The notes below the pieces were generated by a model. It was not told where the DNA came from and searched no databases. It worked only from the letters and a program-made list of their open reading frames with translations. Positions 1-16,633 of a stretch of DNA of 64,000 nt are shown piece by piece. The DNA lies in contig OZ253447.1 of assembly GCA_965261115.1 (NCBI GenBank), positions 1,977,656 through 2,041,655 on the forward strand. The letters run 5' to 3'. Numbering within the stretch: the first letter of the stretch is position 1; every line of letters begins with the position of its first letter. Source of the DNA: Candidatus Poribacteria bacterium (GTDB lineage Bacteria; Poribacteria; WGA-4E; WGA-3G). The position numbers were made by a program, and so were the translations under genes.

Positions 1-1873
1 GCCCCTCAGCAACCTGACTATCTCCCCCAAAAATATAAATCTGACCATCTATAATCTCAGTCGTATGTCCCGATTTACCAACCAGCATATCCCGCGCTTC
101 ACTCCAACGATCCCTTACCGGATCATAGATTTCAATCGTTGAATGATACTTATATTCCCTATCCTCCCAAACAGAACCGCCGATAACATAGATTTTGCCA
201 TTGATAAAGTTTGCCGAGTGTCCCGCTTTCCGAGTAAACATCTCTCGCCTTTCACGCCACCGATTCGTTTTCGGATTGAACACCTCGACACTCGAAAGAT
301 ACGGATCCGACTTGCTTAAACTCGCGGACGGCCCCGTGCCACCCGTCGCATAGATTTCGCCATTGACAACACTCAGTGCCGCCCAATACCGCGCATGGTG
401 CATACGGCTCGCCGTTACCCAGAGGTCCGTCGCTGGATCATACACCTCTACAGTCGCCAACTGCCCCCGTTTTCTGCCCATCGGACCGACCGCTAACCCA
501 CCAATCGCATAGATTTTGCCATCCACAACGCACGTCCGCGTCTTTCTCGGTGTCGGCATGTCCGCTTTCTGGGTCCAGCTGTCCGTAACCGGATCATACA
601 TTTCCACAGTTGGGAGGCCTTCAGCCTCGTGTACCCAACCCGTATACATCGGGACTTTCTTAATCTTTTCGCCACCGATAGCGTAGATTTTGCCATCCAC
701 AACGGAAACCGCTACACCAGACCGCTTTGTCGGCATATCCGCCTTCCGTTGCCAAGTATCGGTTTTCGGGTCATACATCTCCACCGTTGAAATAGCGATC
801 TCCCCAAATTCGTCCTTTTCCAGTTGTAGCCTGCCCCCTATAGCGAAGATCTTACCGTCTACAGTACCCGTAGAAAAGCAAGATCGCGCTGTCGGCATAT
901 CTGCTTTCCGCTGCCACTGTAATGTAGAAAACCTAAGAGAATCCCCTTGCGTCTCGGAAACCAGCGCCGCCTCAGCAACCCGCAGTCCTGCCCTGCTATT
1001 TTTATCCGTAGCAGCCACGCGCCCGATCTGGTCCCGGACATCCGGTTTTGAATCGGCATCCAGCACAATAAAGGCATCAACAAGCTCAACCGTCGGTTCG
1101 GCGACTGCATCGAAATTATACGGTTTCTGAAAGCGGACGAGATATTGGTGCGTCGCACCCAAGAGCATCACAACCAGAAACGCCGCCAGACCAAAAGCAC
1201 CCCACGGGAGCAACGGCTTCGCAACCGGAGGCGGTGTCGGTTGCAGATCAGCGACTTGTCGCATGATATTCTCGGTGAGGTTAGCAGGGAACTGCACACC
1301 CCCGAGCACCTCCTGGACCAAGAGTTCTTGATCCTCCCGCAAACGCTTCCGCGCCCGCCAGAGCCGATTCGTAATCGTATTGACCGAGACCCCCAAGAAT
1401 TTGCTAATCTCCTTCGCCGTCATTTCACCGAGATAGTGGAGTGTCATCACCGTACGCTCACTCTCCGGCAGTTTAGACAGCAGTTTTTCGACGATCGCAT
1501 AACGATGCTCGGTCCCTTCTACTTCGCGCTGTTCCGCAGTGTAATGAACATAAGAAGATTCCGCTATCTCTTCCATAGGTGTATCCTCCAGCGATTGCAT
1601 CGCCGGTTTATGTCTTTGAAGCCAATTAAGGCAAAGTCGATTTGCGATGACATACAGCCACCCCGCAAATTGATTCGGATTTTTGAGTGTCGAGAGTTTC
1701 TTATAGGCTTGCAAAAACGTATCCTGCGTAATCTCTTCCGCATAGTGAAAATCGCTAACCTTCCGCCACGCAAGCGCGTGAACACCTCTTTGGTGCCTTC
1801 GGACCAACATATCAAAAGCAGCGTCATCGCCAGACAAAATCCTACGAATCAGTTGAGCATCATTTTCCACCAT
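1..1873 (-). CDS. ECF sigma-70 factor fused to a TM helix and a C-terminal Kelch-repeat propeller (3' end runs off the window)
   Basis: Not in the ORF track (no stop in window). Manual translation from ATG at 1873 (AGGAG RBS): MVENDAQLIRRILSGDDAAFDMLVRRHQRGVHALAWRKVSDFHYAEEITQDTF...LPESERTVMTLHYLGEMTAKEISKFLGVSVNTI, then TM PLLPWGAFGLAAFLVVMLLG, then repeated DGKIYAIGG...VEMYDPxTDxW Kelch units. Confidence 0.9.
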   Translation of the reverse strand, partial: MVENDAQLIRRILSGDDAAFDMLVRRHQRGVHALAWRKVSDFHYAEEITQDTFLQAYKKLSTLKNPNQFAGWLYVIANRLCLNWLQRHKPAMQSLEDTPMEEIAESSYVHYTAEQREVEGTEHRYAIVEKLLSKLPESERTVMTLHYLGEMTAKEISKFLGVSVNTITNRLWRARKRLREDQELLVQEVLGGVQFPANLTENIMRQVADLQPTPPPVAKPLLPWGAFGLAAFLVVMLLGATHQYLVRFQKPYNFDAVAEPTVELVDAFIVLDADSKPDVRDQIGRVAATDKNSRAGLRVAEAALVSETQGDSLRFSTLQWQRKADMPTARSCFSTGTVDGKIFAIGGRLQLEKDEFGEIAISTVEMYDPKTDTWQRKADMPTKRSGVAVSVVDGKIYAIGGEKIKKVPMYTGWVHEAEGLPTVEMYDPVTDSWTQKADMPTPRKTRTCVVDGKIYAIGGLAVGPMGRKRGQLATVEVYDPATDLWVTASRMHHARYWAALSVVNGEIYATGGTGPSASLSKSDPYLSSVEVFNPKTNRWRERREMFTRKAGHSANFINGKIYVIGGSVWEDREYKYHSTIEIYDPVRDRWSEARDMLVGKSGHTTEIIDGQIYIFGGDSQVAEG

Positions 1874-1941
1874 CAAAATCTCCTAATTTTCCCCCAGGCC
1901 CGGCTCGGTCCCCAGACCCGGTAGGTGCGGTTTGCAACCGC

Positions 1942-2265: not shown

Positions 2266-2266
2266 T

Positions 2267-4318
2267 TCAAAAAGCACCCGCAACCAGCACAAGATCCTGT
2301 ATATTCACAACCCCATCCCCATTAACATCCGCAGCACTATCACCCGATGCCCCAAGATGCGATGCGACCCAAACAAGGTCCTGGATATTAACAACATCAT
2401 CCCCATTAACATCCTCCCTGCGTCCTATAGGTTCAGGCGTAGAAGGATTGACTTCCCATAAAAGTATCGTACCATCCTTACTCCCACTTGCGACGGTATT
2501 CCCATCCGGACCAAACGCCACGCCGTCAACCTCATCCGCATGCCCACTGAACGTACGGAGCTCGCTACCCGTGTTAACATCCCAAATACGAACAGTAGTG
2601 TCCCAACTCCCAGTCGCAAGGGTGCTACCATCAGGACTCAACGCTATACCGACAATCGCATCCGTATGCCCAATCAGCCTGTGTAGCGAGTTACCCGTGT
2701 TGACATCCCAGAGCCGCGCAGTGTCGTCATAACTCCCAGTCGCAAGGGTGGTCCCATCCGAAGTAAACGCCACGCTGGCGACCCCATTACTATGCCCCGT
2801 GAATGTGAGAAGCTCGCTACCCGTGCTGACATCCCAGAGCCGCGCAGTGTTATCATAACTCCCAGTCGCAAGGGTATTGCCATCCGGACTAAACGCCACG
2901 CTTCTGAGCCAATTCGTATGACCAGTGAATATGCGAAGCTCGCGACCTGTATTAACATCCCAGAGCCGCGCAGTACGGTCACCACTCGCCGTTGCGAGGG
3001 TGCTACCATCCGGACTAAACGCCACATCTCTGATCCAATCCGTATGCTCGGTAAGCCTATGTAGAAGGCGACCCGTGTTCGCATCCCAGAGCCGCGCAGT
3101 ATCGTCATAACTCCCAGTCGCGATGATGTTACCATCCGGACTAAACGTTATGCTATTGACCCACTGCGTATGCCCAGTAAGCGTGTGGAGCAGGTTACCC
3201 GTGTTCGCATCCCACAGACGGACGGTGTAGTCCTCATTCCCGCTTGCGACGGTATTGCCATCCGGACTAAACGCCACGCCGATGACACCAGACGTATACC
3301 CACTGAACGTGTGTAGCGGGGTATCCGTGTTCGCATCCCAGAGCCGCGCAGTACCGTCATAACTCCCAGTGGCAAGGGTATTGCCATCTGGACTAAACGC
3401 CACGCCGATGACCCGATCCGTATGCTCAGTAAGCGTACGAAGATGTGAACCCGTGTCGGCATCCCAGAAACGGACAGTTTTGTTAGAACTCGCCGTTGCG
3501 AGGGTCTCGCCATCTGGACTAAACGCCACGCTGAAGATCGGAGCCCAATGTCCGGTAAGCGTGTGAAGCTCGTCACCCGTGTTCGCATCCCACAGACGCG
3601 CAGTGCTGTCCCAACTCCCGCTTGCGACCGTGTTACCATTCGGACGAAACGCCACACTATTGACCCCAGACCTATGCCCGGTAAGCGTCCGGAGCCGGCT
3701 ACCCGTAGTCGCATCCCAGAGACGAATAGTGTTATCCGCAGCCCCACTTGCGAGCATCGTCCCATCCGAACTCAGTGCGACGCTGGTGACCCCATTCCGA
3801 ACCCTATTGAACATCTTTGTATGCCCGGTAAGCGTGCGGCGTTCGCTACCCATATTCACATCCCAGAGACGGACAGTAGCATCCTCACCTCCGCTTACAA
3901 GCGTCATGCCATCCCGACTAAACACCACGCTATTGACCCCAGCCGTATGTCCAGTAAGCGTGCGGAGATGTGAACCCGTATTCGCATCCCAGAGACGAAT
4001 CGTGGTATCCTCACTCCCACTTGCCATGATACTGCCATCCCGACTAAACGCCACGCTGTTGACAGCACCCGTATGCCCTCTGACGAGTTCAAGTTCTTCG
4101 CCAGTCTGTGTGTCGTAGATCCAAACACCTATAATACTCACCACTGCCAGGCGTGTGCTATCTGGCGAATACTGTATTTCATTTATTTTCCCTTTACCGA
4201 GGCGTGCCTTAGCACCTTCCGGCAATCCCAACGTTATGTAGTCTTGTGCAAAAGCATTTGTCAAAACAGCAAACACCATCAAAAGCGTAACCAAAATCGA
4301 AAAAAGTATAGTTTTCAC
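2267..4318 (-). CDS. Secreted WD40-repeat protein (~14 repeats) with C-terminal dockerin/EF-hand-like pair
   Basis: Signal peptide ending AFA-Q; GH...VAFSPDG...ATGSxDxTxRLWD repeats; C-terminal DVNGDxVVNIQDLV twice. Confidence 0.92.
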   Translation of the reverse strand: MKTILFSILVTLLMVFAVLTNAFAQDYITLGLPEGAKARLGKGKINEIQYSPDSTRLAVVSIIGVWIYDTQTGEELELVRGHTGAVNSVAFSRDGSIMASGSEDTTIRLWDANTGSHLRTLTGHTAGVNSVVFSRDGMTLVSGGEDATVRLWDVNMGSERRTLTGHTKMFNRVRNGVTSVALSSDGTMLASGAADNTIRLWDATTGSRLRTLTGHRSGVNSVAFRPNGNTVASGSWDSTARLWDANTGDELHTLTGHWAPIFSVAFSPDGETLATASSNKTVRFWDADTGSHLRTLTEHTDRVIGVAFSPDGNTLATGSYDGTARLWDANTDTPLHTFSGYTSGVIGVAFSPDGNTVASGNEDYTVRLWDANTGNLLHTLTGHTQWVNSITFSPDGNIIATGSYDDTARLWDANTGRLLHRLTEHTDWIRDVAFSPDGSTLATASGDRTARLWDVNTGRELRIFTGHTNWLRSVAFSPDGNTLATGSYDNTARLWDVSTGSELLTFTGHSNGVASVAFTSDGTTLATGSYDDTARLWDVNTGNSLHRLIGHTDAIVGIALSPDGSTLATGSWDTTVRIWDVNTGSELRTFSGHADEVDGVAFGPDGNTVASGSKDGTILLWEVNPSTPEPIGRREDVNGDDVVNIQDLVWVASHLGASGDSAADVNGDGVVNIQDLVLVAGAF

Positions 4319-4393
4319 GCGTAATTTCTCCTCATAAGTTCACCATATTTATTGTTTTATTTCTAAATAAACGCCTGTCATTAACCAAACCCT

Positions 4394-4482
4394 GGTTCGT
4401 AGTAGCGCAATTGATTGCGCCGTACTTGCCCAAATGCGCCGTGCATTATTGCGCCGTGCGATGAATCGCACGACTACGAACC
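4394..4482. repeat. REPIN-like doublet of inverted GTAG hairpins
   Basis: GGTTCGTAGT...ACTACGAACC ends; internal hairpins GCGCAAT/ATTGCGC and GTGCGAT/ATCGCAC. Confidence 0.7.
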
Positions 4483-4885
4483 ATTTTCCCCTGGCCCGGT
4501 AGGTGCGGTTTGGAACCGAACCGGATCCTACCCCAGACCCGGTAGGTTCGGTTTCTAACCGAACCGGATCTTACGCGGAAACCTTGAAGACTTCAAAACC
4601 CTCTTCAGTCGCGTAGCGACGGAATGTTTATAGCAGCTATGGTGCGGTTTGGAACCGCACCGGATCTTGGGCACAAACGCTGTGGGAACCTCATTGGATA
4701 TTTTATGAAATTACCCAATGAATAAATTAATCTTCGTATAAGGGGAATTTAGGGTTTTTCTTCCTCTCAAAGTCCCCCTGATAAGGGGGATTTAGGGGGT
4801 TTTCTTCCATAGGTTCAAAGTCCCCCTGGTAAGAGGGATTTAGGGGGTTTCTTCCAATCTTCCTGTTTTCCATCCTTCCTCTTTA

Positions 4886-5815
4886 TTATTTCACCGCTCC
4901 TGCAGGCGGGGTTTGAAACCCCGCCTGCTTAAGCCGTCCCCAAGTAATAGCAAGTTTCCCCGTCGCCTCAACCCCAAGCGGAATACCAATCTTCGCACCA
5001 TTCTTCCCCGCCAGATGATGCCCATTGCGCGACGCATCTAAAAATTCCTGTGCCCCACCCGGCTCATCAAAATGCCACAACGCAACCGTCTTCGCGTCAT
5101 CTTTGAACTTACCGCGTGGCATAAAACCCTTTTTCTCAACATCGTAACGCGCCTCCGCCGAGATACGAACCTCATCAATATAGCCAGTAAAGGAATCCAA
5201 AAACGCTTTGGCTGGCGGACGACCCGGCATCACAATTATCTTTCCAAACCCGCCAAGCACGAAGTCCTTTGGACGCAAATTACGAGGATCACGATCATGT
5301 CCGAGCGGTTGACCATTTTGATGTGTCCCCCCGAAATCATTGACGATCGCCGTTACCTGATTCCCCTTCACCTGATGAGCGATATGGTACCATTGGTTCA
5401 GTTCAAGCGAGATCGGAAAAAATAGCGTTCGACCGAACCCACCATCAATATAGGAACTCATTTGCAAGACAAGATCCCCCTTCGGTGGATCGGTATTTAC
5501 CACATTCGCCAGTTCATTGAATTGACCTTCATTATTCAAGATGACCATATCCACCTGTTGATGGAGTATCACCAATACCGTCGTCTCCGTTTTGTCGGGC
5601 GGTGCAGTCAGATATATCCAAGCTTCAAAAGTGAACTCTTCCGTGCCATCCGGTAAAAGCCAACCGAAAGTTTCAAAATCCAAAACAGCATAGTCGTCGA
5701 CCCCATCGAGAACTAAATAGTTGCCACCCGCCGGTGAAGCCGGTGGAAACGCGTCAGCACCCAGCGGCATCAGTACCACCAAAAAAACGCACATAAAAAT
5801 TTGTCGGTATCCCAT
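4886..5815 (-). CDS. Secreted LamG/concanavalin-A-like jelly-roll protein with C-terminal GKLAITWGRLK motif
   Basis: Signal peptide; LDGVDDY, FTFEAWI, WYHIA, FTGYIDEVRIS and TVALWHFDE LamG motifs. Confidence 0.85.
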   Translation of the reverse strand: MGYRQIFMCVFLVVLMPLGADAFPPASPAGGNYLVLDGVDDYAVLDFETFGWLLPDGTEEFTFEAWIYLTAPPDKTETTVLVILHQQVDMVILNNEGQFNELANVVNTDPPKGDLVLQMSSYIDGGFGRTLFFPISLELNQWYHIAHQVKGNQVTAIVNDFGGTHQNGQPLGHDRDPRNLRPKDFVLGGFGKIIVMPGRPPAKAFLDSFTGYIDEVRISAEARYDVEKKGFMPRGKFKDDAKTVALWHFDEPGGAQEFLDASRNGHHLAGKNGAKIGIPLGVEATGKLAITWGRLKQAGFQTPPAGAVK

Positions 5816-6001
5816 TTTTTCTCCTTATCAAAATATCTAACGTCCAACACGCTTTCACAGTTTACCCATATTTAACGCTTAGCCATCCAATCTCTTAAAT
5901 GTTATCATCTTATCGCGTTGCCCCTTGCAGGCGGAGTTTGAAACCCCGCCTGCAGAGTCGTCGGATGTCCGTTACCACAGAAAAACGCGTAAGTCCTCAT
6001 A

Positions 6002-6045: not shown

Positions 6046-6156
6046 AAAAATGAAAAATTGGTAAAGCCAAGAGATATATAGGTAGGATAATGAATTGCAG
6101 TACAACAAATTCTAACCGCACTCCCAAACCCGGTAGGTGCGGTTTGGAACCGCACC

Positions 6157-6389
6157 ATAAGTGTCAATTTAAGAAAAAATAACCGTTTCGGCCCCGGACC
6201 CGGTAGGTTCGGTTTCCTAACCGAACCGGATACTACGCGGAAATTTTGAAGACTCCAAAAACCTCTTCAGTCGCGTAGCGACGGAATGTTTATAGCAGCG
6301 CATGACCCAAAAACCTAAGCCCCGTAGGGGCGGCATGTATAGAGATATTCCTACAAAATACCGTCAAAAATCCCTAAATTGACACCTAT
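6157..6389. mobile_element. MITE family 1 (TIR ATARGTGTCAATTTA), flanked by a duplicated 21-bp REP hairpin
   Basis: ATAAGTGTCAATTTA...TAAATTGACACCTAT; GGTGCGGTTTGGAACCGCACC on both sides. Confidence 0.8.
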
Positions 6390-6623
6390 GGTGCGGTTTG
6401 GAACCGCACCGGATCGTCCGCAGAAAGCTTAGATGTAGCAAACCGCCTCTTAAAATCCGCGCAATTCGCGATTCAGAATAAGTAGGAGCGAGCTGTGCTC
6501 GCGATCTTCTTGTAGGATGGATTGTTTTTATTGGGGATGTTTTTGCGTGGGTATTTCTGCGGATTTCTTCTACGGTTTCTAACCGCACTCCCAGGCCCGG
6601 TAGGTGCGTTTTGGAACCGCACC

Positions 6624-6877
6624 ATAGGTGTCAATTTAGGGATTTTCACGGTATTTCGGCGGACCGTCTCTATAGATGCTGCAGAAACACCCAAGCAAAA
6701 ACCCCCTACGGGGCTTAGGTCTGTGAGATTGCTTTTCTCTACACAGATACCATCCCTACCGGATTCAAGAGGTTTTTGAAGTCTTCAAGGTTTCTGTGTA
6801 AAATCCGGTTCGGTTAGGAAACCAAACCTACCGGGCCTGGGGCGGAGGCGGTTGTTATTTCTTAAATTGACGCTTAT
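6624..6877. mobile_element. MITE family 1, opposite orientation
   Basis: ATAGGTGTCAATTTAG...TAAATTGACGCTTAT; flanking REP duplicated with one mismatch. Confidence 0.8.
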
Positions 6878-7043
6878 GGTGCGGTTTGGAACCGCACCGG
6901 ATCTAAGACAGGAACCTCAAATATAGAAAACGCCTCTTAAAATCCGCGTTCTCCGCGTTCTCCGCGTTCTCCGCGATTCAGACTTCTCAAAGTCCCCCTG
7001 ATAAGGGGGATTTAGGGGGTTTTCTTAGAAGCGAAGACAAACC

Positions 7044-9992
7044 TCACAACCGCGCATCAAGCGGAATATGAAACACCCCACGCCGTTGCGTAGCAATATA
7101 AAGCCGATCCTCACTGACAACCAGAGAAACAATCGTATCCGGAACACTTGGAAAAATCTGTTCCCACTTACCATGCGCATCCAAGCGATAGACACTCGCA
7201 GCATCAGCACCATAAACGCGAGCATGATGGACAGCGAACCTATCTATCACAGTCCGTTCACCCATCCCATCCGTCAGCACGCGCCAATGTTCGCCGTTCT
7301 GTGAAACCAAGACCCCGCCGTCAGTAGCAACATAAACCGTAGCACCCGCAAAGGCTATCTCTTTAAAACCCGTAAAACGAAGCGGGAGGTTCGGTGTAAT
7401 ATCTTTCCAACTGTTGCCACCATCAAGCGACTGAAAGAGGGTACCATCTCGCTTACCGACATAGACGGTATCCCCTGAAACCGCCAACTGGAAACCCCTA
7501 TCAAATCCATAAAGAGATTCGCTATTATCGATTAAACCCGTATCCGTCCATTCTGAGTCACCGGGCTTCCATTTGAAAAGGTGTCGCTTCCATTGCGCGT
7601 AGAACGTCTGCCCACTCACTGCAAACGCCCCAATATTGTGGTGTTTAGCAATAGCGTAGAGTGGATTGGGTGAGTTATCACGCTTTTCCGGGGTATTAGG
7701 CAAATCATCCCCAGTCCACAAATTAACGGACGAAGATTCGCGTTCAAAAGCGGGTGCCCCCTGAACCGGAACGAGCACATTCTCCACAGTTAACCGGAAA
7801 AGGCGCAGCGCATCTTTTTCAGGAGCAGTTCTATATTCAGGAACGATGCCGTAGAGCGTGCCGTTAGCAACGGCTAACGGCGAAGCGAGGTTAAGGTGAG
7901 AAAATTTCTGTTCTATTGTCTCACGTTCTTGGGTGTTGGCGTCAATATTAAGGTAAGAAAATTTCTGTTCCATTGCTTCTAATGCTTCACGTATTAGGTT
8001 ATTAGAGTCAATCTGTACGGTTTCCCACGTCTCACCACCGTCAACGGATCGGATAAGATTCCCACCGGTATACCCATAGATGTTATTGTTAACTGCGACC
8101 AGATACTCTATTGCTGTTTCCCTGATGCCGTTCGTAAATAAGTGCCATGATTGACCACCATCGGTCGTGCGATGAATACCGGACGGACCGGCTCTATAAA
8201 AAGTCCTTTTATCCATCGCTACAATCCCTTGGGGTAAGTGGATTTCCCCAATACCAGCCAGAACATTAATACCAATTTCTGGATTCACAAGATTTGAATC
8301 ATTTTCGTCCATTATCTGCGTCCACGATGCCCCGAAGTCAGTCGAGTGAAAAATCGCGCCCAATCTGTCTGCATTGCCATCAAATGCTATATCTGTTGTC
8401 GACTTTTGGCTCGGTTCAATCCATCGCCAGTGAGAAAGGTCAGGCCCCGTTCCAACATAAAGGCTGTTTTCAAAGCCAGTCATCCAATAGACAGGTTCCG
8501 ATGGACTTGTCGGCAAGTGTCGCCAAATACTTGAATCAAGAAGGTAGATGCCATCGCTTGTGCCCGCAAATACCTTGTTGTTAATCGCAGCGACTGCTGT
8601 AATACTTTCACCTGCCAATCCAGTTTCCAAGAGATCCCACTGTGTACCAGCATCTGTAGATCGGAAGACACCTTCACCTTGAAGCGCGAGATACATGACC
8701 ATACCTGAACGCGAGGTGTCTCCATCCGTTGCGTCCATGATAACGAATTCGATGGGGTATCCTTTCGGTCGCGAGCAGAATACCTGCCACGTTTCGCCGT
8801 TATCGATGGAGGTGAATATATTATCCACGGAGACAACGTAGAGGGTTCCACCACGCGCTGCCATCGGCATCTGAAGTCTATCAGATCGCACCTCCGTGTT
8901 GATGAGTGTCCAAGCAGTCGCGTCCACTTCGCGTCTATAGATACCGGATGATGTAGCAGCGTAAAGCGTTCTTTCAGGTGCAACAAAGATGTTGAATACA
9001 GTCCCGCCATACGGACCATTTGTTTGCGTCCATTGCGACGCGGAAGACTCGCTGAAATTTTCCTGTCGGTTGGCGGTTAGCGTTGTCTCAGGACTTTGCG
9101 GACGGGGACGAACACTGCTACCGGGATAAACAACCTGTCCCGCCTGATTCTGCACAGCCGGTTTTGCATCAATCTCAACGGTGAAGAACGCGTCAACGAG
9201 TTCAACCGTCGGTTCAGCTTGTGCCTCGAAGCTATACGGCTGCTGAAACCGAGCAAGGTATTGACTGCTTGCACCCAGCAAGAGTATAATCAAAACCGTA
9301 GCTGTACCAAAAGCCGCCCACGGCAGCAGCGGTTTCGCAACCGAAGGCGGTGCCGGTTTCATGTCGGCAACTTGTCTTGTGATGTTCTCTATGAAGTTTG
9401 TCGGTAATTGGACACCACCGAGGACTTCACTAACCAAGAGTTCATCTTTCTCTTGCAAACGCTTGCGTGCCCGATGGAGTCGGCTATGCACCGTCTTCAC
9501 AGATACACCTAAGAACTTGCCAATCTCCTTCGATGTCATTTCACCGAGATAGTAAAGCGTCACAACCGTCCGTTCACTCTCCGGTAGTCGTGCGAGCAGC
9601 CTTTTGACAGTTTCGCCTCGCAGTTCAGAGGCTACCGTCTCGCGCTGCTCCGATACATAACGCGTATACGAGGATTTTTCTACCTCTCCCACATGCGTGC
9701 TCTCCAGCGATTGCGTCGCAAGTTTTTTCTTCCGCATCCAATTAAGGCAAAGCCGATTCGCGATAACATAGAGCCATCCTGCAAACTGATTCGGATTCTT
9801 AAGTGTAGCCAATTTTTTGTAAGCTTGGAGGAAAGTATCTTGTGTAATCTCTTCGGCATAGTGAAAATCGCCAATCTTCCGCCACACAAGCGCGTGCACA
9901 CTCTTTTGATATTTTTCTACCAAAGTGCTAAACGCCGCATCATCGCCAGACAAAATGTTGCGAATCAGTTGAACATCATTTCCTCGTTCCAT
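7044..9992 (-). CDS. ECF sigma-70 factor fused to a TM helix and an extracytoplasmic BNR/Asp-box beta-propeller region
   Basis: Sigma regions 2 and 4 in aa 1-190; TM LPWAAFGTATVLIILLLG; Asp-boxes SIDNGETW, STDAGTQW, STDFGASW, TTDGGQSW, SVDGGETW, SLDGGNSW. Confidence 0.9.
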   Translation of the reverse strand: MERGNDVQLIRNILSGDDAAFSTLVEKYQKSVHALVWRKIGDFHYAEEITQDTFLQAYKKLATLKNPNQFAGWLYVIANRLCLNWMRKKKLATQSLESTHVGEVEKSSYTRYVSEQRETVASELRGETVKRLLARLPESERTVVTLYYLGEMTSKEIGKFLGVSVKTVHSRLHRARKRLQEKDELLVSEVLGGVQLPTNFIENITRQVADMKPAPPSVAKPLLPWAAFGTATVLIILLLGASSQYLARFQQPYSFEAQAEPTVELVDAFFTVEIDAKPAVQNQAGQVVYPGSSVRPRPQSPETTLTANRQENFSESSASQWTQTNGPYGGTVFNIFVAPERTLYAATSSGIYRREVDATAWTLINTEVRSDRLQMPMAARGGTLYVVSVDNIFTSIDNGETWQVFCSRPKGYPIEFVIMDATDGDTSRSGMVMYLALQGEGVFRSTDAGTQWDLLETGLAGESITAVAAINNKVFAGTSDGIYLLDSSIWRHLPTSPSEPVYWMTGFENSLYVGTGPDLSHWRWIEPSQKSTTDIAFDGNADRLGAIFHSTDFGASWTQIMDENDSNLVNPEIGINVLAGIGEIHLPQGIVAMDKRTFYRAGPSGIHRTTDGGQSWHLFTNGIRETAIEYLVAVNNNIYGYTGGNLIRSVDGGETWETVQIDSNNLIREALEAMEQKFSYLNIDANTQERETIEQKFSHLNLASPLAVANGTLYGIVPEYRTAPEKDALRLFRLTVENVLVPVQGAPAFERESSSVNLWTGDDLPNTPEKRDNSPNPLYAIAKHHNIGAFAVSGQTFYAQWKRHLFKWKPGDSEWTDTGLIDNSESLYGFDRGFQLAVSGDTVYVGKRDGTLFQSLDGGNSWKDITPNLPLRFTGFKEIAFAGATVYVATDGGVLVSQNGEHWRVLTDGMGERTVIDRFAVHHARVYGADAASVYRLDAHGKWEQIFPSVPDTIVSLVVSEDRLYIATQRRGVFHIPLDARL

Positions 9993-10379
9993 CAGAATCC
10001 TCCATAATTAACGAATCGGTTTATCAGTATAGCAATACAGCCCCTGTTTTTCCAGTAAAATCTCGTATATATCAAGGTCATTTAGTTTTCCATTTTTCCA
10101 CAGCGTTTTGCCCCCAGACACAGTAGGTTTTCCCCATGTCCGCTAGGTTTTCCCCCAGGCCCGGTAGGTTCGGTTTCCCAACCGAACCGGATCCTACGCG
10201 GAAACCTTGAAAACTTCAAAACCCTCTTCAGTCTCAGACCCAGGCCCGGTAGGTTCGGTTTTGCGGTGTACTCACCCAAATGCGACGTGCATTCCTAACC
10301 GAACCGGATCCTACGCGAAACCCTTGAAAACTTCAAAACCCTCTTCAGTCTCAGACCCAGGCCCGGTAGGTTCGGTTTC

Positions 10380-10518
10380 ATGAAGATTAATTTTTTAATT
10401 CGGTAATTTCATAAAATATCCAATGAGGTTCCCACAGCGTTTGTGCCTAAGATCCGGTGCGGTTCCAAACCGCACCTACCGGGCCTGGGGATTACCGGTT
10501 TATTTTTTTAAACTTCAT
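10380..10518. mobile_element. MITE family 2 (ATGAAG...CTTCAT) inserted in a REP loop
   Basis: Flanks GTTCGGTTTC | CTAACCGAAC rejoin to the intact REP seen near 6205; element inverted relative to the other copies. Confidence 0.75.
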
Positions 10519-10687
10519 CTAACCGAACCGGATTCTACGCGGAAACCTTGAAAACTTCAAAACCCTCTTCAGTCGCGTAGCGACGGCATGTTTATAGCAG
10601 CGTTTCCAAGCAAAACCCCAAGCCCCGTAGGGGGTTTTTGCTGGGGTATTTCTGCAGCATGTTTATATCTGTTTTGTCTATTTCCCC

Positions 10688-12163
10688 TCAAATATCCATC
10701 CGAAAAAACCTCAAAAACGCCACGGTCGTTAACACAATCGCAAAGAAACAGAGCAGCAAGAGATCCAAAGCAGCATGCTGCAGCGTCTCTCCCAAAGTCG
10801 GTTCCACCAACGGCGGAGCCGGCATCGTAGACGGGATTGCCTCGATATCGTCGTGGCTAAAAGCACCCTCTGATATTTTGCTGAAAATTTCTGCATCAAG
10901 TGTTTCATAGTAGCGAGTACCCGTTTGGAAGTAGGCATTTTTTTTCGCCTGACCCGTTTGCGTCGCATCTGTAGCGAGGAAAATGAAGGAAGCCGTAGGC
11001 GTAATTCGGGAAAAATTCACACCGATTGTATCTTGGTATTTTCTCTCTCGCGCATAACGTCTATCGAGTTGCGTCGCGAGGTCCCGGTATTTTACCCGAG
11101 CCGCTTCTTCAAGCGGTGCCATCTTCTCATTCATTTTCTCTATATGTTCTGGCCCCATTGTAAAGACGGCAGTCCCGCCCTTCGGGGGGTTAGATTTCAG
11201 CATTTCAGACATCACTTCACTCATCATTTTGCCTCTTTCCGCGTCAAGACCGGCGCGCAATTCTTCCCGCCGCGCTGTTTTTTCCCTATAGACACTCTCC
11301 GCTGTTGAAGTCGGCGCGACGATCTGTGCCGCGAGAAACCCGACCCGCGGTAAGATGAGAACAACGAACACCCAGACAGTAAATGCAACAATAAGTGCTG
11401 TCTTAGAACTGTCAAAATAGATAGAGATCACCGCCCCCACCGCAAAAAAGACCGCAATATAGAGCAACGAGACGAAGATAAGGCAGAGGATACGCAGAAA
11501 AATGTCCGATTCAGCCAGCGGAAAGCCTTGCAAGACGAGCACGAGTAAACCGATGATGACCGACATTAAGAACGGAAGGATGAAGACAAAGTATCCACCG
11601 ATGAGTTTGCTCCACAAAAATATATCGCGGGGCAGCGCATTGGCGAGCGTTATCCGAAGCGTGCCGGCTTCTCTTTCCCCAGCAACCGCATCAAACGTAA
11701 ACAATAATGCCAGCAGACTAAAGACAGTACTGACGACAAACACAAAGTCGAGATGCCCCAAAAGAAAGGCGATCGGCGCAGTAGACAGCGACGCTTCGCC
11801 CCGCGTTATGCCGTTGCGTGTCATACCGAGATAACTCGGAAGCGCAGATTCTAAACCCGTCGCAAACACACTCAAAGGCGTCGGTTTAAGAATCAGTTTG
11901 GAAGCTTCAAAACTCGTATCTGTTGCCTTTGACCTAAATTTAAAGGCGGGCACGCCTCCCGATTCTTTACCATTTTCGTCTTTGGGAGTGTTTTCATCTT
12001 CGAGCGTTTCTTGTTCCTGATAATCAACTTGGCGTTTAAGATAATGATGGTAATTAATATGCAAATTAAGCGGTATAAGCAATACACACATCAGCAGAAG
12101 CGCAACAAACCGCGCACTCAAGATATGATGCATAATCTCTTTCTGAATTAACGTCATCAACAT
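10688..12163 (-). CDS. ABC-2 type transporter permease subunit
   Basis: FDAVAGEREAGTLRITLANALPRDIFLWSKLIG signature; several TM helices; likely ATG at 12163 (GAGG upstream) rather than 12211. Confidence 0.85.
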   Translation of the reverse strand: MLMTLIQKEIMHHILSARFVALLLMCVLLIPLNLHINYHHYLKRQVDYQEQETLEDENTPKDENGKESGGVPAFKFRSKATDTSFEASKLILKPTPLSVFATGLESALPSYLGMTRNGITRGEASLSTAPIAFLLGHLDFVFVVSTVFSLLALLFTFDAVAGEREAGTLRITLANALPRDIFLWSKLIGGYFVFILPFLMSVIIGLLVLVLQGFPLAESDIFLRILCLIFVSLLYIAVFFAVGAVISIYFDSSKTALIVAFTVWVFVVLILPRVGFLAAQIVAPTSTAESVYREKTARREELRAGLDAERGKMMSEVMSEMLKSNPPKGGTAVFTMGPEHIEKMNEKMAPLEEAARVKYRDLATQLDRRYARERKYQDTIGVNFSRITPTASFIFLATDATQTGQAKKNAYFQTGTRYYETLDAEIFSKISEGAFSHDDIEAIPSTMPAPPLVEPTLGETLQHAALDLLLLCFFAIVLTTVAFLRFFRMDI

Positions 12164-12280
12164 GACAGCAACCTCATTCTTTATGTAGAATAAACTGTTA
12201 GTTTGTTCCACATCACCACCATAGGTGTCAATTTAAAAAAATAATAGCCTTGATTCCCCAGGTCCGGTAGGTGCGGTTTG

Positions 12281-12396
12281 ATGAAGTTTAAGAAAATATT
12301 TCGGTAATTCTATATTTTCCCCAGGCCCGGTAGGTGCGGTTTGGAACCGCACCGGGCTTCACCAAGAAATTACCGAATTAAAAAGTTAATCTTCAT
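12281..12396. mobile_element. MITE family 2 in a REP loop
   Basis: GTGCGGTTTG|ATGAAGTTTAAG...GTTAATCTTCAT|AAACCGAAC; carries an internal REP. Confidence 0.75.
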
Positions 12397-12584
12397 AAAC
12401 CGAACCGGATCCTACGCGGAACCCTTGAAGCCTTCAAAAACCTCTTCAGTCCCGTAGGGGACGTTATGTTTATAGCAGCGTTTTCAAGCAAAAACCCAAG
12501 CCCCGTAGGGGCGGCATCTGTGTAGAAACTTGAATCCCGTACTGACGCTAAAAGGTTCCCAAACAAACCCAGCAAGCAACCATC

Positions 12585-13142
12585 CTATTCAATAACAACA
12601 TCAATGACAACACTGTCACCGAGATCTCCAAGATTAATTATGTCGCCTGAAAGACGGGCACCGTCTATCTCTATCCACTCGACTGTCCCAATAGAATCCA
12701 ACCCCTCAATTGACGATATCTTCCAAGAATCACCGAGCTGTTCCTGCAAAACATCAACAAAGGTATCATCTACAGCCGCTGTTGCATCCAAGTTCTCAGG
12801 GCGTGCAGCAAACGCCTCGTCTTCAAGTGCATCAAGGAAGTCCGAAAACTCATCAGGCGATGCTTCTGCTGTCTCCTTGTTGATTATCTCCGGTTCCGCT
12901 GCTTCCTGTTTCACAAACAGAGGTGCCTCGGTAGTTTCAAATATCACCGTCTTTCCGAAAGTTGTTTGTGCATCAAGATTTTCCGTCGGCTCCATTTTTT
13001 CTGGAATAGGTGCGGGCAGTTCACCGAGGGATTTCTCAAAACGTTGAAGATCCCACTTGGCATAAAAATAGATCCCGACACAAAGCACGGTCATCAAAAT
13101 AGCCGTACGCCCAAGAAGTTGCGAGTAATTCATATAGTTCAT
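12585..13142 (-). CDS. Hypothetical membrane-anchored acidic protein
   Basis: N-terminal TM AILMTVLCVGIYFYA, D/E-rich remainder; start probably ATG 13142 (GAGG upstream). Confidence 0.7.
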   Translation of the reverse strand: MNYMNYSQLLGRTAILMTVLCVGIYFYAKWDLQRFEKSLGELPAPIPEKMEPTENLDAQTTFGKTVIFETTEAPLFVKQEAAEPEIINKETAEASPDEFSDFLDALEDEAFAARPENLDATAAVDDTFVDVLQEQLGDSWKISSIEGLDSIGTVEWIEIDGARLSGDIINLGDLGDSVVIDVVIE

Positions 13143-13176
13143 AATTTGCCCTCTTTTCAAATTCACGTCTTTAGTT

Positions 13177-13220
13177 ATTAAAGACACAATTTTTCGCGAA
13201 AACCTTGCATAATTTTGAAA
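13177..13220 (-). promoter_or_regulatory. Candidate ECF-sigma promoter motif, copy 2
   Basis: Minus strand TTTCAAAATTA-TGCA-N20-GTCTTTAAT, about 35 nt before the ATG at 13142. Confidence 0.55.
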
Positions 13221-13591: not shown

Positions 13592-16500
13592 TTACAATCC
13601 TTCTTCAAGTGGGATATGAAACAGCCCGCGCCGTCCGGTGGAAATGTAAAGTCTATCGTCACTAACGACAAGAGAAGCAACTGCACTCGGGACACCTGGA
13701 GCAATCTGTTTCCACTTGCCGCGATCATCCAAGCGATAGATCCCCGTATCACCCGCACCATAAACGCTCGTATGATCGACAGCGAACCTCTCTATCACGA
13801 TACGCGCTTCCATCTCATCGGTTAGCACGCGCCAATGTTCGCCGGTTCGCGAACTCAAGACCCCTTTGTCCGTTGCGACGTAAACCGTTGAACCCGCAAA
13901 AGCTATCTCTTTGAAACGGGTAAACCGAAATGGAAGGTTTGGTGTAATGTCTTTCCAGCTATCCCCCTTATCAAGCGATTGAAACAGTTTACCATCCCGC
14001 TTTCCCACGTAGACATTTTCCGCCGAAGCGGCTAACGCAAACCCATTTCTCAAGCCCCGAGTTGACTGTTTACCGAGATCTATTAACCCAGTGTTTGTCC
14101 ATTTTGAATCGCCAAATTTCCATTTGAAAAGCCCTCGCAGGTGCTCCACATAGAATACTTCGTCACTGGCAGCAAATCCACCCACTCTTGCAGAGGTTGT
14201 AATACCGCGTAATCTTTGCGTCAACTTAGGATTCTTCCCTATGTTATCAGGTAAGTGGATTCCTTCCGCCTTCGCAACAGCAGGCACCAGTGCGATGGAC
14301 AGCATCTCTCGACCAAAAGAGGGCATTTCTTGCACTCGAACGAGGGCATTACCGTCTGTAGATAGACCGAAAATACGTAGATTATCTTTTTCAGCCGAGA
14401 TCCAATACAGCCTTCCGTCTGCAACAACCAACCTTGAATCAGCAGAGAAATTAATGCGAAAATGCTGCTTTTCTATCCGTTCGCCGGTATCAATGCGCAG
14501 GCTTTCCCACGACTCACCACCGTCAGTCGATTGGACAACATTACGACCGGTAGGCACATAGAGCCTATTGTTGAACGCTACCAAATTCTTTATCTTCGTT
14601 CCTACCATCCCATTCATAAATAGGTGCCACGAGTCACCCGCATCAATTGTTTGATAAACACCGAGTGTCCCAACTGTGTAAAAAGTCTTTTCATTCACTG
14701 CTACGCTTCGCGAATTATTATGCGGAAGCAAATTTGCATTGACCCCAAGATTGGTCCAAGTTTCTCCGGCATCTGTTGAGCGAAATCGTTGGATACCTTG
14801 TGCTAAAACCGTTTTACCAGCAACCGAAAACTTTATTCCAAAGGGTGCTATAAAAGAGAGAGGTTCATTCTTAGGCGTAATCTCAGTCCATGATTCACCC
14901 AAGTCGGTTGAGTGGAAGATCCTGCCGCGTGGTAGGTTTCCACCCATCCCGACTCCCGATAGTCCAGGTTCAGACGATTTCCCCAAAAACAGGTCTGGAC
15001 CCATTCCAACATAGAGACTGTTTTCAAAGGCTGTCAAGGAAAGAACAGCATCGAAGGTTGCCACGGGTCTCTGCTCCCAAACACCAGAATTGACGCGATG
15101 GAAATCAATGTGTGCGTTAGCAATCACCTTATTCTCAAGGGATTGGGGGGTTATTGGCACTTCCTTCCAAACACCAGCGTTAAAATGGTAGAGTCCCTCG
15201 TTTGTACCAATAAACATTGTGTTTTCAACCGCAGCCACCGCGTAAATGCGTTTGTCTGTCAATCCTTCGTTAAGAGGGTCCCACTGTCCATCTATAGCCG
15301 TAGATCGGAAAACGCCTTTATCTTGAAACGCGAGATACATCGTAATATCCGCTTGTGAACTGACACCCTGTATTTCATCCATGATAATGAGTCCAACAGA
15401 GCGTCCCTTTGGACGAGGACAAAAAACATTCCACGTCTCACCATTATCGGTTGAAGCGAAGATTGCATCAGTAGAGACAATATAGAGGGTGTCCTTATGC
15501 GCTGCTATAGGCACATGAAAGCTTCCTATTGGGATATTGGTATCAATACGTGTCCACGCAGGCGAACCCACTGACAATCTATAGATACCTGTGGGTGTAG
15601 CAGCATAAAGTATCCCTTCTGATGTCGCAAAAATGTTGAAGACATCGCTACCCTGGGGACCAGTTGCCTGTGTCCACTGTGACGTGGAAAGTATGCGAGA
15701 ATCCCTCTGCACATCAGATGTCAGAAGTGTCTCGGCATCCCGCAAACCGGTATTATTTTTTTTATCAATGGTTCCAGCACGCCCGATTTGATTTCGCACA
15801 TCCGGTTTTGAATCCATATCAAGAATGACACCGGTATCAACGATTTCAATTGTGGGTTCAGATGTTGCCTCAAAACTATAAGGTTTCTGAAAACGAACGA
15901 GGTAACGATTGCTCATACCCAGTAGCAGCAGAATCAAAATCGTAGCTGCACCCAAAGCTGCCCACGGGAGGAATGGCTTCGGAGCTAAAGGCGATGTTGG
16001 GTTTATATCGGTAATTTGTCGCATGATGTTCTGACTTAAATCCGCCGATACCTGCACGCCGCTGAGAACTTCATGAACCAAGAGTTCTTGTTCCTTTTGT
16101 AAACGCTTTCGCGCGCGCTGAAGTCGACTCGTAATCGTGTTCGCCGACACACCTAAAAAATTGCCAATCTCCTTTGTTGTCATTTCACCGAGATAATAGA
16201 GGGTCATTACTGTCCGTTCACTCTCCGGTAGTTTTTTCAGAAGTTTTTTGACGAGTTCAGCGTTGTACGCATTCGCTTCCGTTTCGCGTTGTTCCGATAC
16301 ATAATGCGTATGAGATGACTCTTCTATTTCTTCCATAGGTGTGTCCTCCAGCGATTGCATCGTAGGTTTTCTCTTTCGGAGCCAAGCGATACAAACCCGA
16401 TTCGCAATGACATACAGCCATCCAGCAAACTGACTCGGCTCCTTGAGCGTCGAGAGTTTTCTGTATACTTGGAGAAAGGTGTCTTGCGTAATTTCTTCAG

Positions 16501-16633
16501 CATGATGAAAATCTCCAATCTTCCGCCATGCAAGCGCGTGAACACTCTTTTGATATTTTTCAACTAAAGTATTGAAGGCAGCGTCGTCACCCGCTAAAAT
16601 TTCGTGAATCAGTTGAACATCGTCTCTCTCCAT
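13592..16633 (-). CDS. ECF sigma-70 factor fused to a TM helix and BNR/Asp-box propeller region (paralogue of 7044..9992)
   Basis: Same architecture; similar over the full length, e.g. VYVGKRDGxLFQSLDxGxSWKDITPNLP. Confidence 0.9.
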   Translation of the reverse strand: MERDDVQLIHEILAGDDAAFNTLVEKYQKSVHALAWRKIGDFHHAEEITQDTFLQVYRKLSTLKEPSQFAGWLYVIANRVCIAWLRKRKPTMQSLEDTPMEEIEESSHTHYVSEQRETEANAYNAELVKKLLKKLPESERTVMTLYYLGEMTTKEIGNFLGVSANTITSRLQRARKRLQKEQELLVHEVLSGVQVSADLSQNIMRQITDINPTSPLAPKPFLPWAALGAATILILLLLGMSNRYLVRFQKPYSFEATSEPTIEIVDTGVILDMDSKPDVRNQIGRAGTIDKKNNTGLRDAETLLTSDVQRDSRILSTSQWTQATGPQGSDVFNIFATSEGILYAATPTGIYRLSVGSPAWTRIDTNIPIGSFHVPIAAHKDTLYIVSTDAIFASTDNGETWNVFCPRPKGRSVGLIIMDEIQGVSSQADITMYLAFQDKGVFRSTAIDGQWDPLNEGLTDKRIYAVAAVENTMFIGTNEGLYHFNAGVWKEVPITPQSLENKVIANAHIDFHRVNSGVWEQRPVATFDAVLSLTAFENSLYVGMGPDLFLGKSSEPGLSGVGMGGNLPRGRIFHSTDLGESWTEITPKNEPLSFIAPFGIKFSVAGKTVLAQGIQRFRSTDAGETWTNLGVNANLLPHNNSRSVAVNEKTFYTVGTLGVYQTIDAGDSWHLFMNGMVGTKIKNLVAFNNRLYVPTGRNVVQSTDGGESWESLRIDTGERIEKQHFRINFSADSRLVVADGRLYWISAEKDNLRIFGLSTDGNALVRVQEMPSFGREMLSIALVPAVAKAEGIHLPDNIGKNPKLTQRLRGITTSARVGGFAASDEVFYVEHLRGLFKWKFGDSKWTNTGLIDLGKQSTRGLRNGFALAASAENVYVGKRDGKLFQSLDKGDSWKDITPNLPFRFTRFKEIAFAGSTVYVATDKGVLSSRTGEHWRVLTDEMEARIVIERFAVDHTSVYGAGDTGIYRLDDRGKWKQIAPGVPSAVASLVVSDDRLYISTGRRGLFHIPLEEGL

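Follow-up and report, generated by a model that had tools for sequence, protein, structure and literature searches.

Putative single-pass sigma receptors with exchangeable ectodomains constitute a duplicated and recombined protein family in Poribacteria

In a stretch of 64,000 nucleotides (nt) from the genome of a Candidatus Poribacteria bacterium (NCBI GenBank assembly GCA_965261115.1, contig OZ253447.1, positions 1,977,656 to 2,041,655 of the forward strand; hereafter, the window), we analysed three genes, designated A, B, and C, each of which encodes in one polypeptide an extracytoplasmic function (ECF) sigma factor core, a tether, a single hydrophobic helix, and a C-terminal beta-propeller domain. 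They correspond to the three long minus-strand frames in the first 17 kb of the list of open reading frames (ORFs) of the window (Table 1) and were found just as an earlier note, made from the sequence alone, had claimed; the start codon of gene A is either TTG at 1876 or ATG at 1873. The three products could be aligned colinearly and without gaps over about 321 residues, up to a common "QW", and were divergent beyond it. The N-terminal 321 amino acids (aa) of gene B were 62-63% identical to those of the other two, with E values of 3e-131 and 4e-128, indicating, at the level of sequence, that the shared N-terminus is far beyond chance. Both Sigma70_r2 (aa ~24-90) and Sigma70_r4_2 (aa ~128-180) exceeded the Pfam cut-off in genes A, B, and C, consistent with the roughly 320 shared residues carrying sigma regions 2 and 4 that the note had described, and the Pfam matches of the C-terminal parts agreed with its division of the genes into one with Kelch repeats and two with BNR/Asp-box propellers. 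The ectodomain of gene A was also matched by the NanM-like family PF24996 (69.6 bits, cut-off 45), and genes B and C by BNR, Sortilin-Vps10, PSII_BNR, and DUF6242.

When the 321-aa segment of gene B was used as a query, 94 places were matched in this 6.67-Mb single-contig genome, and 71 ORFs, among all genome ORFs of at least 100 aa, were retained as sigma paralogues at E<1e-45. The paralogous family of three that had been proposed does exist, therefore, but its size is 71. In 52 of the 71, the sigma part is followed by a single hydrophobic segment and a conserved linker (the cassette), and the remaining 19 are helix-less, having the sigma part only, in some cases plus the tether helix. As many as 46 family genes sit in 14 co-directional arrays, the largest of which comprises ten genes with mixed sensor types. 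The C-terminal classes, defined by a Pfam scan of 68 C-terminal parts and BLAST clustering of the 67 proteins longer than 330 aa, were the BNR double propeller (29 members), WD40 (14 members, 12 by Pfam and 2 by clustering, none of them a window gene), LRR-type and AhpC/redoxin (3 each), two types without a known match, unkA (4) and unkB (2), DnaN (beta-clamp)-like and M61N-like (2 each), Kelch, C-type lectin, peptidase M16_C, and S9/PD40 (1 each), and unmatched singles (4), with 4 more members being short or truncated. The 52 helix-bearing members comprise 27 BNR, 14 WD40, 3 LRR, 2 unkB, 1 each of Kelch, lectin, M16, and M61N-like, and 2 unmatched proteins, so that ten kinds of outside domain, namely eight recognisable classes and two unmatched singles, are carried on the same cassette. 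A SelN-like domain, about which the note had asked, was not among the Pfam matches listed for the 68 C-terminal parts and 18 extra representatives from relatives.

The sigma core scored 103.3 bits against TIGR02937 (sigma70-ECF, cut-off 42.9) and has the features of ECF (group 4) factors, with only regions 2 and 4 present and Sigma70_r2, Sigma70_r4_2, and Sigma70_ECF above cut-off. The closest solved chain was SigW (5wuq_A, E 1.6e-33), which was also the closest among the NCBIfam models, although the SigW equivalog cut-offs of NF007223/TIGR02948 were missed (113.4 bits vs 209 and 107.9 vs 243). In an alignment of the 52 cassette-bearing paralogues, the sigma core was the best-conserved part (column identity: region 2, 0.75-0.93; region 4, about 0.8), and the sole cysteine conserved in at least 90% was C82 in sigma 2, with none in region 4. 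AlphaFold2 (AF2) prediction for the N-terminal 330 aa together with the 52 paralogues gave a predicted local distance difference test score (pLDDT) of 80-94 for sigma 2/sigma 4. The tether of about 40 aa is short but flexible, with proline-rich parts; it has no Cys/His motif, and neither zf-HC2 nor another anti-sigma family was matched by Pfam in genes A, B, and C. The best 19-residue Kyte-Doolittle (KD) window starts at aa 218-227 in the 52 paralogues, with scores of 1.58-2.46 (median 2.18), and the classical threshold of 1.6 was reached in 51 of them, in support of the hydrophobic segment that had been noticed; the net charge was +1.83 before and +1.04 after the helix. The column conservation was 0.52-0.75 across the tether, the helix, and the juxtamembrane segment to about aa 290 and dropped over the three 10-residue blocks that follow (0.42, 0.30, and 0.27). 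The family-wide conserved block thus stops at about aa 285-290 (KPxVRxQxG), and the "QW" lies about 30 aa further, at the end of a variable spacer. A hidden Markov model of the tether, helix, and cassette matched the family ORFs plus one sigma-less gene and the downstream piece of a split gene, and nothing else. In the models, the cassette behaves as a conserved linear segment; conserved yet predicted to be foldless, it is the leading candidate for a site-1 or docking element common to the family. A complex prediction with sigma (aa 1-182) and tether (aa 183-222) given as alignments scored 0.02 and was used neither for nor against binding.

Table 1. Positions of the fusion genes, their parts, and the associated genes and sites in the window
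Feature	Position	Strand	Details
Gene A, sigma-tether-transmembrane (TM)-cassette-Kelch fusion	2..1876	minus	Full frame in genome 655 aa; 3' end outside window
Gene A, ECF sigma core	1334..1807	minus	Pfam; region 2 aa 24-90, region 4 aa 128-181
Gene A, single hydrophobic helix	1157..1213	minus	aa 222-240, KD 2.13
Gene A, conserved juxtamembrane cassette	1007..1156	minus	aa 241-290
Gene A, Kelch beta-propeller ectodomain	2..913	minus	Pfam, six Kelch repeats
Gene B, sigma-tether-TM-cassette-double propeller fusion	7044..9992	minus	982 aa
Gene B, ECF sigma core	9450..9923	minus	Pfam; closest solved relative SigW; AF2 pLDDT 80-94
Gene B, cytoplasmic tether (predicted)	9330..9449	minus	aa 182-221; conserved short helix, N-L-T-E-N-I-M-R type
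Gene B, single hydrophobic helix	9273..9329	minus	aa 222-240, KD 2.08
Gene B, conserved juxtamembrane cassette	9123..9272	minus	aa 241-290; YLxRFQxPYxFxAxSExT.E..D ... KPxVRxQxG; no fold predicted
Gene B, variable low-conservation spacer	9030..9122	minus	Ends in sub-clade "QW"
Gene B, ectodomain of two tandem Asp-box propellers, GH74-like fold	7047..9029	minus	Pfam and AF2/Foldseek
Gene C, sigma-tether-TM-cassette-double propeller fusion	13592..16633	minus	1013 aa
Gene C, ECF sigma core	16094..16567	minus	Pfam
Gene C, single hydrophobic helix	15917..15973	minus	aa 221-239, KD 2.19
Gene C, conserved juxtamembrane cassette	15767..15916	minus	Alignment
Gene C, BNR/Asp-box double-propeller ectodomain	13595..15673	minus	51% identical to gene B ectodomain
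WD40 propeller protein, sigma-less, exported	2267..4318	minus	683 aa
LamG/concanavalin-like lectin protein, predicted exported	4886..5815	minus	309 aa; signal-peptide-like start; putative target
Family promoter-like site, 37.3 bits	5997..6042	minus	Ahead of LamG gene
ABC-2-type polytopic membrane protein (PF12679), recurrent family companion	10688..12211	minus	Pfam; upstream of gene B, co-directional
Small membrane protein ORF	12585..13187	minus	About 185-200 aa, one helix; first gene behind site
Family promoter-like site, 44.1 bits	13172..13216	minus	Ahead of small membrane ORF and ABC-2 gene
PD40 propeller protein, exported	21850..22899	minus	349 aa; putative target; heads co-directional run to gene C
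Family promoter-like site, 39.6 bits	23076..23121	minus	Ahead of PD40 gene

The exchange of the outside domain was evaluated by locating where the similarity between family members ends. By N-terminal BLAST, cross-class similarity ended in the zone of aa 180-219, where sigma region 4 ends, in 1,723 of the 3,890 ordered pairs and in the zone of aa 280-329, after the cassette, in 1,284, whereas the alignment passed aa 400 in 924 of 1,016 same-class pairs. The former zone represents pairs with a helix-less or truncated member, and the latter, pairs of helix-bearing classes. The fixed junction at the "QW" that had been proposed was, therefore, right in that the junctions are clustered and not scattered, but there are two zones, neither of which is a single residue, and the "QW" is limited to a sub-clade. 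Mapped onto a 69-row tree of the sigma core, the C-terminal classes require 25 changes, the minimum being 12, and the well-supported branches alone force at least 4 changes for BNR and at least 6 for WD40. The approximately unbiased (AU) test, for groups chosen after seeing a first tree, rejected both the BNR bearers (difference in log-likelihood 429, p 5.5e-74) and the WD40 bearers (324, p 8e-10) as one clade. When the tree was built from the BNR ectodomains, members of the two main sigma clades were interleaved with full support. The discordance between the sigma and sensor trees indicates that modules were recombined, and the note's suggestion of modular exchange is borne out by the 52 paralogues with one cassette and ten domain kinds; the discordance is explained by recombination between cassette and sensor and also by gene conversion of the cassette within arrays. 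A sigma-less paralogue of the own C-terminal domain was present within 6 kb in 13 of 54 family members, and the BNR double propeller occurs almost exclusively as part of a sigma fusion, with one distant sigma-less relative in the genome (~25% identity).

For the ectodomain of gene B, AF2 gave a model with a pLDDT of 75.8 and a predicted template modelling score of 0.68, consisting of two tandem seven-bladed Asp-box propellers, as in the GH74 fold. Its best Foldseek matches were GH74 xyloglucanases (query-based template modelling score [TMq] 0.53-0.56; the best, 2cn3_A, E 7.5e-21, TMq 0.53), and a weaker match was to the double-propeller glycan sensors of BT4663 and BT4673, which are periplasmic domains of hybrid two-component systems from Bacteroides (E ~2e-16, TMq ~0.31). 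Both the GH74 xyloglucanases and BT4663/BT4673 bind glycan chains in or between the propellers. In BT4663/BT4673, however, the output is a kinase/regulator, whereas it is a sigma factor here. The sequence identity to these matches is 10-16%. As far as can be judged from the model, the ectodomain of genes B and C is most likely a glycan binder.

To define a promoter motif, words over-represented ahead of the 71 family genes were collected and a position weight matrix (PWM) was built from 31 sites and applied with a cut-off of at least 16 bits; a first regular expression was too strict, matching only 11 of the 71, and was superseded by the PWM. The motif is AATTATGCA[C/A]C-nTTTT-(about 8 nt)-AA-(3 nt)-G[C/T]GTC-[A/T][C/T]TA[A/T], which, judging from its sequence, is organised like an ECF promoter (TGCA[A/C]C, T-tract, about 18 nt, CGTC). 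There were 171 raw genome matches vs 4 in a reversed-sequence control. Merging left 129 sites: 58 precede family genes (54 of the 71), another 58 precede other ORFs, and 13 have no ORF behind them. From the end of the site to the start codon, the median was 70 nt. Non-family sites were within 5 kb of a family gene in 29 of 71 cases, vs 9.5% of random positions, and of the 17 family genes that lack their own site, 12 had a same-strand one 1-5 kb upstream. The -10 flank was TAT in 16, TAA in 5, and other in 5 cases for sigma clade I and TAT in 4, TAA in 17, and other in 11 for sigma clade II, these counts being non-independent because duplicated genes carry their promoters along. The possibility that the motif is a piece of a larger dispersed repeat was rejected, because high-scoring segment pairs extended a median of only -6/-1 nt beyond the motif, and long extensions between sites ran only into homologous coding sequence.

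The ORFs behind the non-family sites (51 clustered, 32 scanned with Pfam) encode mainly exported or envelope proteins. The candidate regulon comprises LamG lectin-like proteins, PD40 and WD40 propellers, an LRR+GHL15+dockerin protein, a C-type lectin with CarboxypepD_reg, Trypsin_2+TPR and giant TPR proteins, ABC-2 permeases, an ABC ATPase, MacB/FtsX, AhpC/redoxin, two STAS proteins, a Reg_prop/SpoIIE protein, MoxR, an M16 peptidase, and two ordinary ECF sigmas. Several putative targets are sigma-less paralogues of sensor ectodomains, as exemplified by an exported 810-aa WD40 protein with 49% identity over 712 aa to the ectodomain of the adjoining fusion.

In the window, the minus strand holds every gene from 23 kb down to 1. 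The earlier statement that no anti-sigma gene is adjacent held for Pfam-recognisable domains, but it passed over the recurrent ABC-2-type gene upstream of gene B. In two same-genus genomes, the cluster is syntenic, with a promoter-like site preceding the ABC-2 gene (the small ORF lying between them in one of the two) and the ABC-2 gene ending 61-68 nt before the gene-B orthologue. Because the site-headed run of the relatives ends so close to it, gene B is probably the last gene of a small-ORF/ABC-2 operon, and the site ahead of the small ORF probably drives gene B too; the gap between the ABC-2 gene and gene B is 695 nt in this genome and is filled with dispersed repeats. The genome has 49 genes of this ABC-2 type, including the window's own, of which 30 are within 6 kb of a family gene, all 30 co-directional, and one or two are found 11-165 nt downstream of helix-less fusions. 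It could be considered from this arrangement, and from the close spacing to the gene-B orthologues, that the ABC-2 protein and the small membrane ORF are the real regulator or sensor that holds or releases the sigma factor, with the ectodomain as an effector or co-sensor and the helix-less members fully dependent on them. Such a neighbour is, however, within 6 kb in only 19 of the 71 family genes and directly adjoins neither gene A nor gene C, and the ABC-2 genes may be mere regulon members, with 4 of the 49 having a promoter site of their own. We consider this explanation unlikely.

Other observations on the cluster concern its intergenic parts and neighbours. Between the PD40 gene and gene C are six co-directional ORFs (16896..17462, 17466..17786, 18161..19582, 19632..20414, 20424..21101, and 21147..21863). 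No Pfam match was obtained for the five that were scanned (that at 17466..17786, of 106 aa, was left out), and two are polytopic, with 8 and 3 hydrophobic segments. Dispersed repeats (~150-450 genome copies) pack the intergenic stretches 1900-2229, 4359-4857, 6120-7029, 10146-10667, and 12217-12528, with up to 410 copies for 4738-4857 and up to 446 for 6934-7029, and these stretches had very high contig depth in all three sequencing runs compared. A terminator-like G+C-rich hairpin with a T-run occurs in three copies between cluster genes (6319-6331, 12500-12512, and 10616-10632, all on the minus strand), at least two of which are inside repeat stretches. In another genome of the genus, a sigma-less Kelch gene (L135, G162:C1, 7168-8264) lies directly upstream of the sigma-Kelch orthologue behind a 39-bit site and is 57% identical to gene A over aa 320-620; this genome is without such a neighbour.

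Several helix-less members and related loci outside the window are also described here. Two DnaN-like fusions (L045, G000:C1:1228505-1230235; L090, 5839350-5840735) have the clamp fused directly to the sigma core; all three clamp domains were matched in L045 (E 4e-29, 2.6e-24, and 2.6e-17), and an ABC-2 gene lies 21 nt downstream of L090. In L072 (G000:C1:3146643-3149444) and L073 (3151253-3153997), the tether helix is kept, the membrane helix and cassette are gone, and a BNR double propeller follows directly after the sigma part, with an ABC-2 gene 96-165 nt downstream of each. Three helix-less fusions with a terminal AhpC/redoxin domain (L091-L093, G000:C1:5874566-5892157) each adjoin a sigma-less paralogue 63-65% identical to the C-terminal part; two ABC-2 genes follow L091, two follow L092, and one more lies between L092 and L093. 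Ten tandem same-strand ABC-2-type genes, the first with the family promoter motif, are found at G000:C1:1122925-1137986, ~20-33 kb from the nearest family gene. A sigma-less gene between two fusion genes (G000:C1:3883737-3886127, a 796-aa frame) retains the tether, helix, and WD40 parts and starts at the conserved K-E-E-P-M-I-R junction, preceded by an AAGGAGG run.

We interpret these genes, as what is on balance probable, as encoding single-pass sigma receptors, members of a duplicated and recombined Poribacteria family that act by proteolytic release of the sigma factor onto its own set of promoters. A SigW-like ECF sigma factor would be held in the cytoplasm by the tether of about 40 aa and one TM helix and connected through the juxtamembrane segment of about 50 aa and the spacer to a ligand domain outside, and the family would have been built by duplication in co-directional arrays and by repeated recombination of the sigma/anchor cassette with sensors. 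A change in the ectodomain would expose the common juxtamembrane segment to a shared site-1 protease, an RseP-type site-2 protease would then cut inside the helix, and the freed sigma factor would bind RNA polymerase and read the family ECF promoter. With that promoter ahead of most family genes, positive feedback would result, and exported and envelope proteins would also be driven, the putative targets in the window being the genes for the LamG and PD40 proteins together with the small-ORF/ABC-2 operon, which in relatives runs directly into gene B. Release by regulated proteolysis is plausible by analogy with known systems. The genome encodes an RseP-type M50 site-2 protease (230 bits) and three S41 proteases, but because such genes are near-universal housekeeping genes, their presence shows only that the proteolytic route stays possible.

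A number of points weigh against this interpretation. The membrane topology, with the sigma part inside and the sensor outside, is inferred from a hydropathy scale. ZAS, RskA, and FecR gave no Pfam match at E<=0.01 in genes A, B, and C; in the AF2 model, the pLDDT was 37-48 for the tether and 26-36 for the helix and cassette, with no confident anti-sigma-like packing; and apart from the tethering, nothing visible keeps the sigma factor inactive. PrsW was not found in the genome, and no site-1 protease was identified there. Genes A, B, and C have no site of at least 16 bits within 400 nt, and gene C has no same-strand site within 6 kb. The motif is assigned to the family sigmas by position and analogy, and the two ordinary stand-alone ECF sigma genes are also behind motif sites, so that one of them could be the true reader of the motif. 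The ectodomain of genes B and C, 14-15% identical to GH74 enzymes, could be an enzyme and not a pure binder. In an RNA library (X11, a coral metatranscriptome, Logan contigs), contigs with 88-95% similarity cover stretches of genes A and B, of the WD40, LamG, and ABC-2 genes, and of the small ORF, but as their depth tracks the DNA run of the same sample and they are without starts, they are no proof of transcription.

The lack of an anti-sigma-like domain and of confident packing between tether and sigma, the short, flexible, and partly proline-rich tether, and the failure to identify a site-1 protease would also fit a sigma factor that is active while tethered, without proteolysis, in a ToxR/CadC-like manner in which the ligand alters the oligomer state or accessibility and RNA polymerase is recruited near the membrane. 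The conserved foldless juxtamembrane segment, however, suits a processing or docking site better than a passive linker, and the sole characterised fused sigma/anti-sigma protein requires Prc and RseP, the latter type of protease being present here. We therefore regard tethered activity as improbable. It may also be conceived that each gene gives two products, with an internal ribosome-binding site and ATG yielding a sigma-less tether-helix-sensor protein that acts as an anti-sigma factor or competitor in trans. An in-frame Met at aa 179-196 after a Shine-Dalgarno-like run, typically K-K-E-E-P-M, is found in 28 of 69 genes, mostly of sigma clade I, and one natural sigma-less gene begins exactly at the internal-start junction. 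Genes A, B, and C are, however, without the internal Met, reading E-L-L-V there, so that the mechanism is impossible for these three, and for the family, we judge it very unlikely.

A few members are truncated or split, namely L057 (226 aa), L069 (145 aa, then a 673-aa frame), and L088 (159 aa), as would be expected if the fusions were decaying genes, with dead sigma domains, or sigma and anti-sigma genes joined by a frameshift. In L069, the 145-aa sigma-2 piece (G000:C1:2804121-2804558) overlaps the 673-aa frame with region 4 and the rest (2804525-2806546), which is likely to reflect a frameshift or pseudogene. Frames are, on the other hand, unbroken in 52 paralogues and in hundreds of orthologues from independent assemblies, by which fusions arising as assembly artefacts were rejected; the sigma core is the best-conserved part, and the cluster is syntenic elsewhere. 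That the fusions at large are artefacts or decaying genes is, thus, scarcely credible.

The distribution of the family was determined with the tether-helix-cassette segment (108 aa), which was matched in 144 of 176 genomes of the phylum. In three families, 108 of 111 (f1), 9 of 11 (f2), and 26 of 29 (f3) genomes were positive, and in eight others (f4-f11), none of 24; at least 27 matches were found in many genomes of genera g1 and g6, and 1-4 copies in families f2 and f3. Of 1.84 billion cluster representatives, 1,161 were matched by a profile of the 330-aa module at E<=1e-30, with E below 1e-87 for each of the best 150, and in a collection of 5.8 billion proteins, the cassette segment was matched by 520 of 982 candidates. 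Among the 120 matches listed, 6 carry an organism name, all of them Candidatus Poribacteria bacterium. Judging from the phylum-wide genome survey and these 6 named relatives, the family appears to be specific to Poribacteria. Within the best 150 of the 1,161 representatives, 137 exceed 400 aa, and 117 of these belong to the classes of this genome. The other 20 long representatives form 18 clusters, and 18 of the 20 were scanned with Pfam; the sensor domains added in relatives were transglutaminase-like, Reg_prop, Trypsin_2+TPR, CarboxypepD_reg, double LamG, PD40, CarboxypepD_reg+AhpC, and beta/gamma-crystallin domains, and 10 of the 18 had no Pfam match besides sigma.

Among known systems, the fused sigma/anti-sigma protein IutY of Pseudomonas putida (ECF243) is activated by Prc and RseP proteolysis and, like the present family, combines in one polypeptide an N-terminal ECF sigma factor, one membrane pass, and an outside sensor (PMC8999054). 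IutY, however, has a FecR-type anti-sigma part and a TonB-dependent transducer, whereas no FecR match was obtained here, FecR being absent also from the 68 C-terminal parts scanned at E<=1e-6 and 1e-8; furthermore, IutY is a single gene, whereas there are 50-70 members with exchangeable sensors here, and the sigma core is nearest to SigW and not to FecI. It was on the basis of the likeness to IutY that the working model was adopted for this family. The SigW-type promoter, with TGAAAC, a T-tract, and CGTA, resembles the family motif. In Bacillus subtilis, SigW is controlled by RsiW, which is removed by regulated intramembrane proteolysis; RsiW is, however, a separate ZAS anti-sigma factor, with PrsW, the protease not found here, acting at site 1. 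ECF01-Gob of Planctomycetes is reportedly, according to Jogler et al. in 2012, a single-helix WD40 fusion. ECF57 and ECF01-Gob resemble the present family in having an ECF sigma factor with a membrane-spanning extension, a possible propeller, and no separate anti-sigma factor (PMC7826278, PMC8999054). In the account of ECF57 in the reclassification of ECF sigma factors, that group is 100% planctomycetal and has about 2 TM helices, a fully conserved Cys pair in sigma 2 and sigma 4, and, in some members, WD40-like propellers (PMC7826278), whereas the present family is from Poribacteria, has one helix, has C82 only with no counterpart in sigma 4, has one juxtamembrane cassette common to many sensor types, and includes WD40-type domains in 14 of the 71 members but not in the window. 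ECF128, found in Actinobacteria only according to its group description, has at position +1 a separate single-pass putative anti-sigma factor with a BNR/sortilin/Ycf48 ectodomain and a short cytoplasmic part without a Pfam match (PMC7826278). The ectodomain signature of this partner is the same as that of genes B and C (BNR, Sortilin-Vps10, PSII_BNR), but there are two genes in ECF128 and one uninterrupted frame here; compared by design and not by sigma sequence, genes B and C resemble the ECF128 arrangement fused into a single gene. Neither ECF57 nor ECF128 fits as the family, from which both are set apart by their descriptions. In ECF48/52/53, a zinc-finger (ZAS) segment stands between sigma and helix (PMC8999054), whereas none was matched in genes A, B, and C. 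Literature searches on Poribacteria and ECF sigma or sigma factor gave, by title and abstract, nothing on this subject, and Poribacteria are unmentioned in the main text and the examined part of the supplement of the reclassification paper (PMC7826278).

Taken together, the kind of system, a fused sigma/anti-sigma-like receptor, is ordinary, and its expansion is extraordinary: the cassette stays constant while the sensors are many, the promoter is shared, and a membrane companion recurs. Fused sigma/anti-sigma proteins have so far been isolated cases, mostly sequence predictions, whereas one cassette is reused 52 times in one genome here. The shared promoter motif with its candidate regulon and the recurrent ABC-2 companion gene are new in this analysis. 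The family offers a naturally occurring set of sensor exchanges with the output module held constant, which would be useful for studying signalling by single-pass sigma receptors and for developing orthogonal sensors. With the predicted promoter sites, the hypothesis can be put directly to the test in a heterologous host.

In a wider and more tentative reading, which we offer as a possibility, the family may constitute a sigma-based receptor array, in which dozens of single-pass receptors with one cleavable cassette and varied ectodomains (GH74-like, WD40, Kelch, LRR, lectin, LamG, peptidase-like, and others) act through one promoter family that controls exported binders and the receptors themselves, with repeat proteins serving as sensors and receptors originating by capture of target genes. 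The bacterium is sponge- and coral-associated, and in papers on sponge and coral symbionts, WD40 and similar repeat proteins are treated as "eukaryotic-like proteins"; in this genome, the WD40, LRR-type, Kelch, and BNR domains of the sigma fusions (14, 3, 1, and 29, respectively) all stand behind a membrane helix except for two BNR domains. If this reading is true, the "eukaryote-like" repeat proteins that sponge symbionts carry would in many cases be sensors and not host-manipulating effectors, and the capture of a target-gene copy would be the origin of new receptors, as the sigma-less paralogues near 13 of the 54 members and the sigma-less Kelch gene of the relative may suggest.

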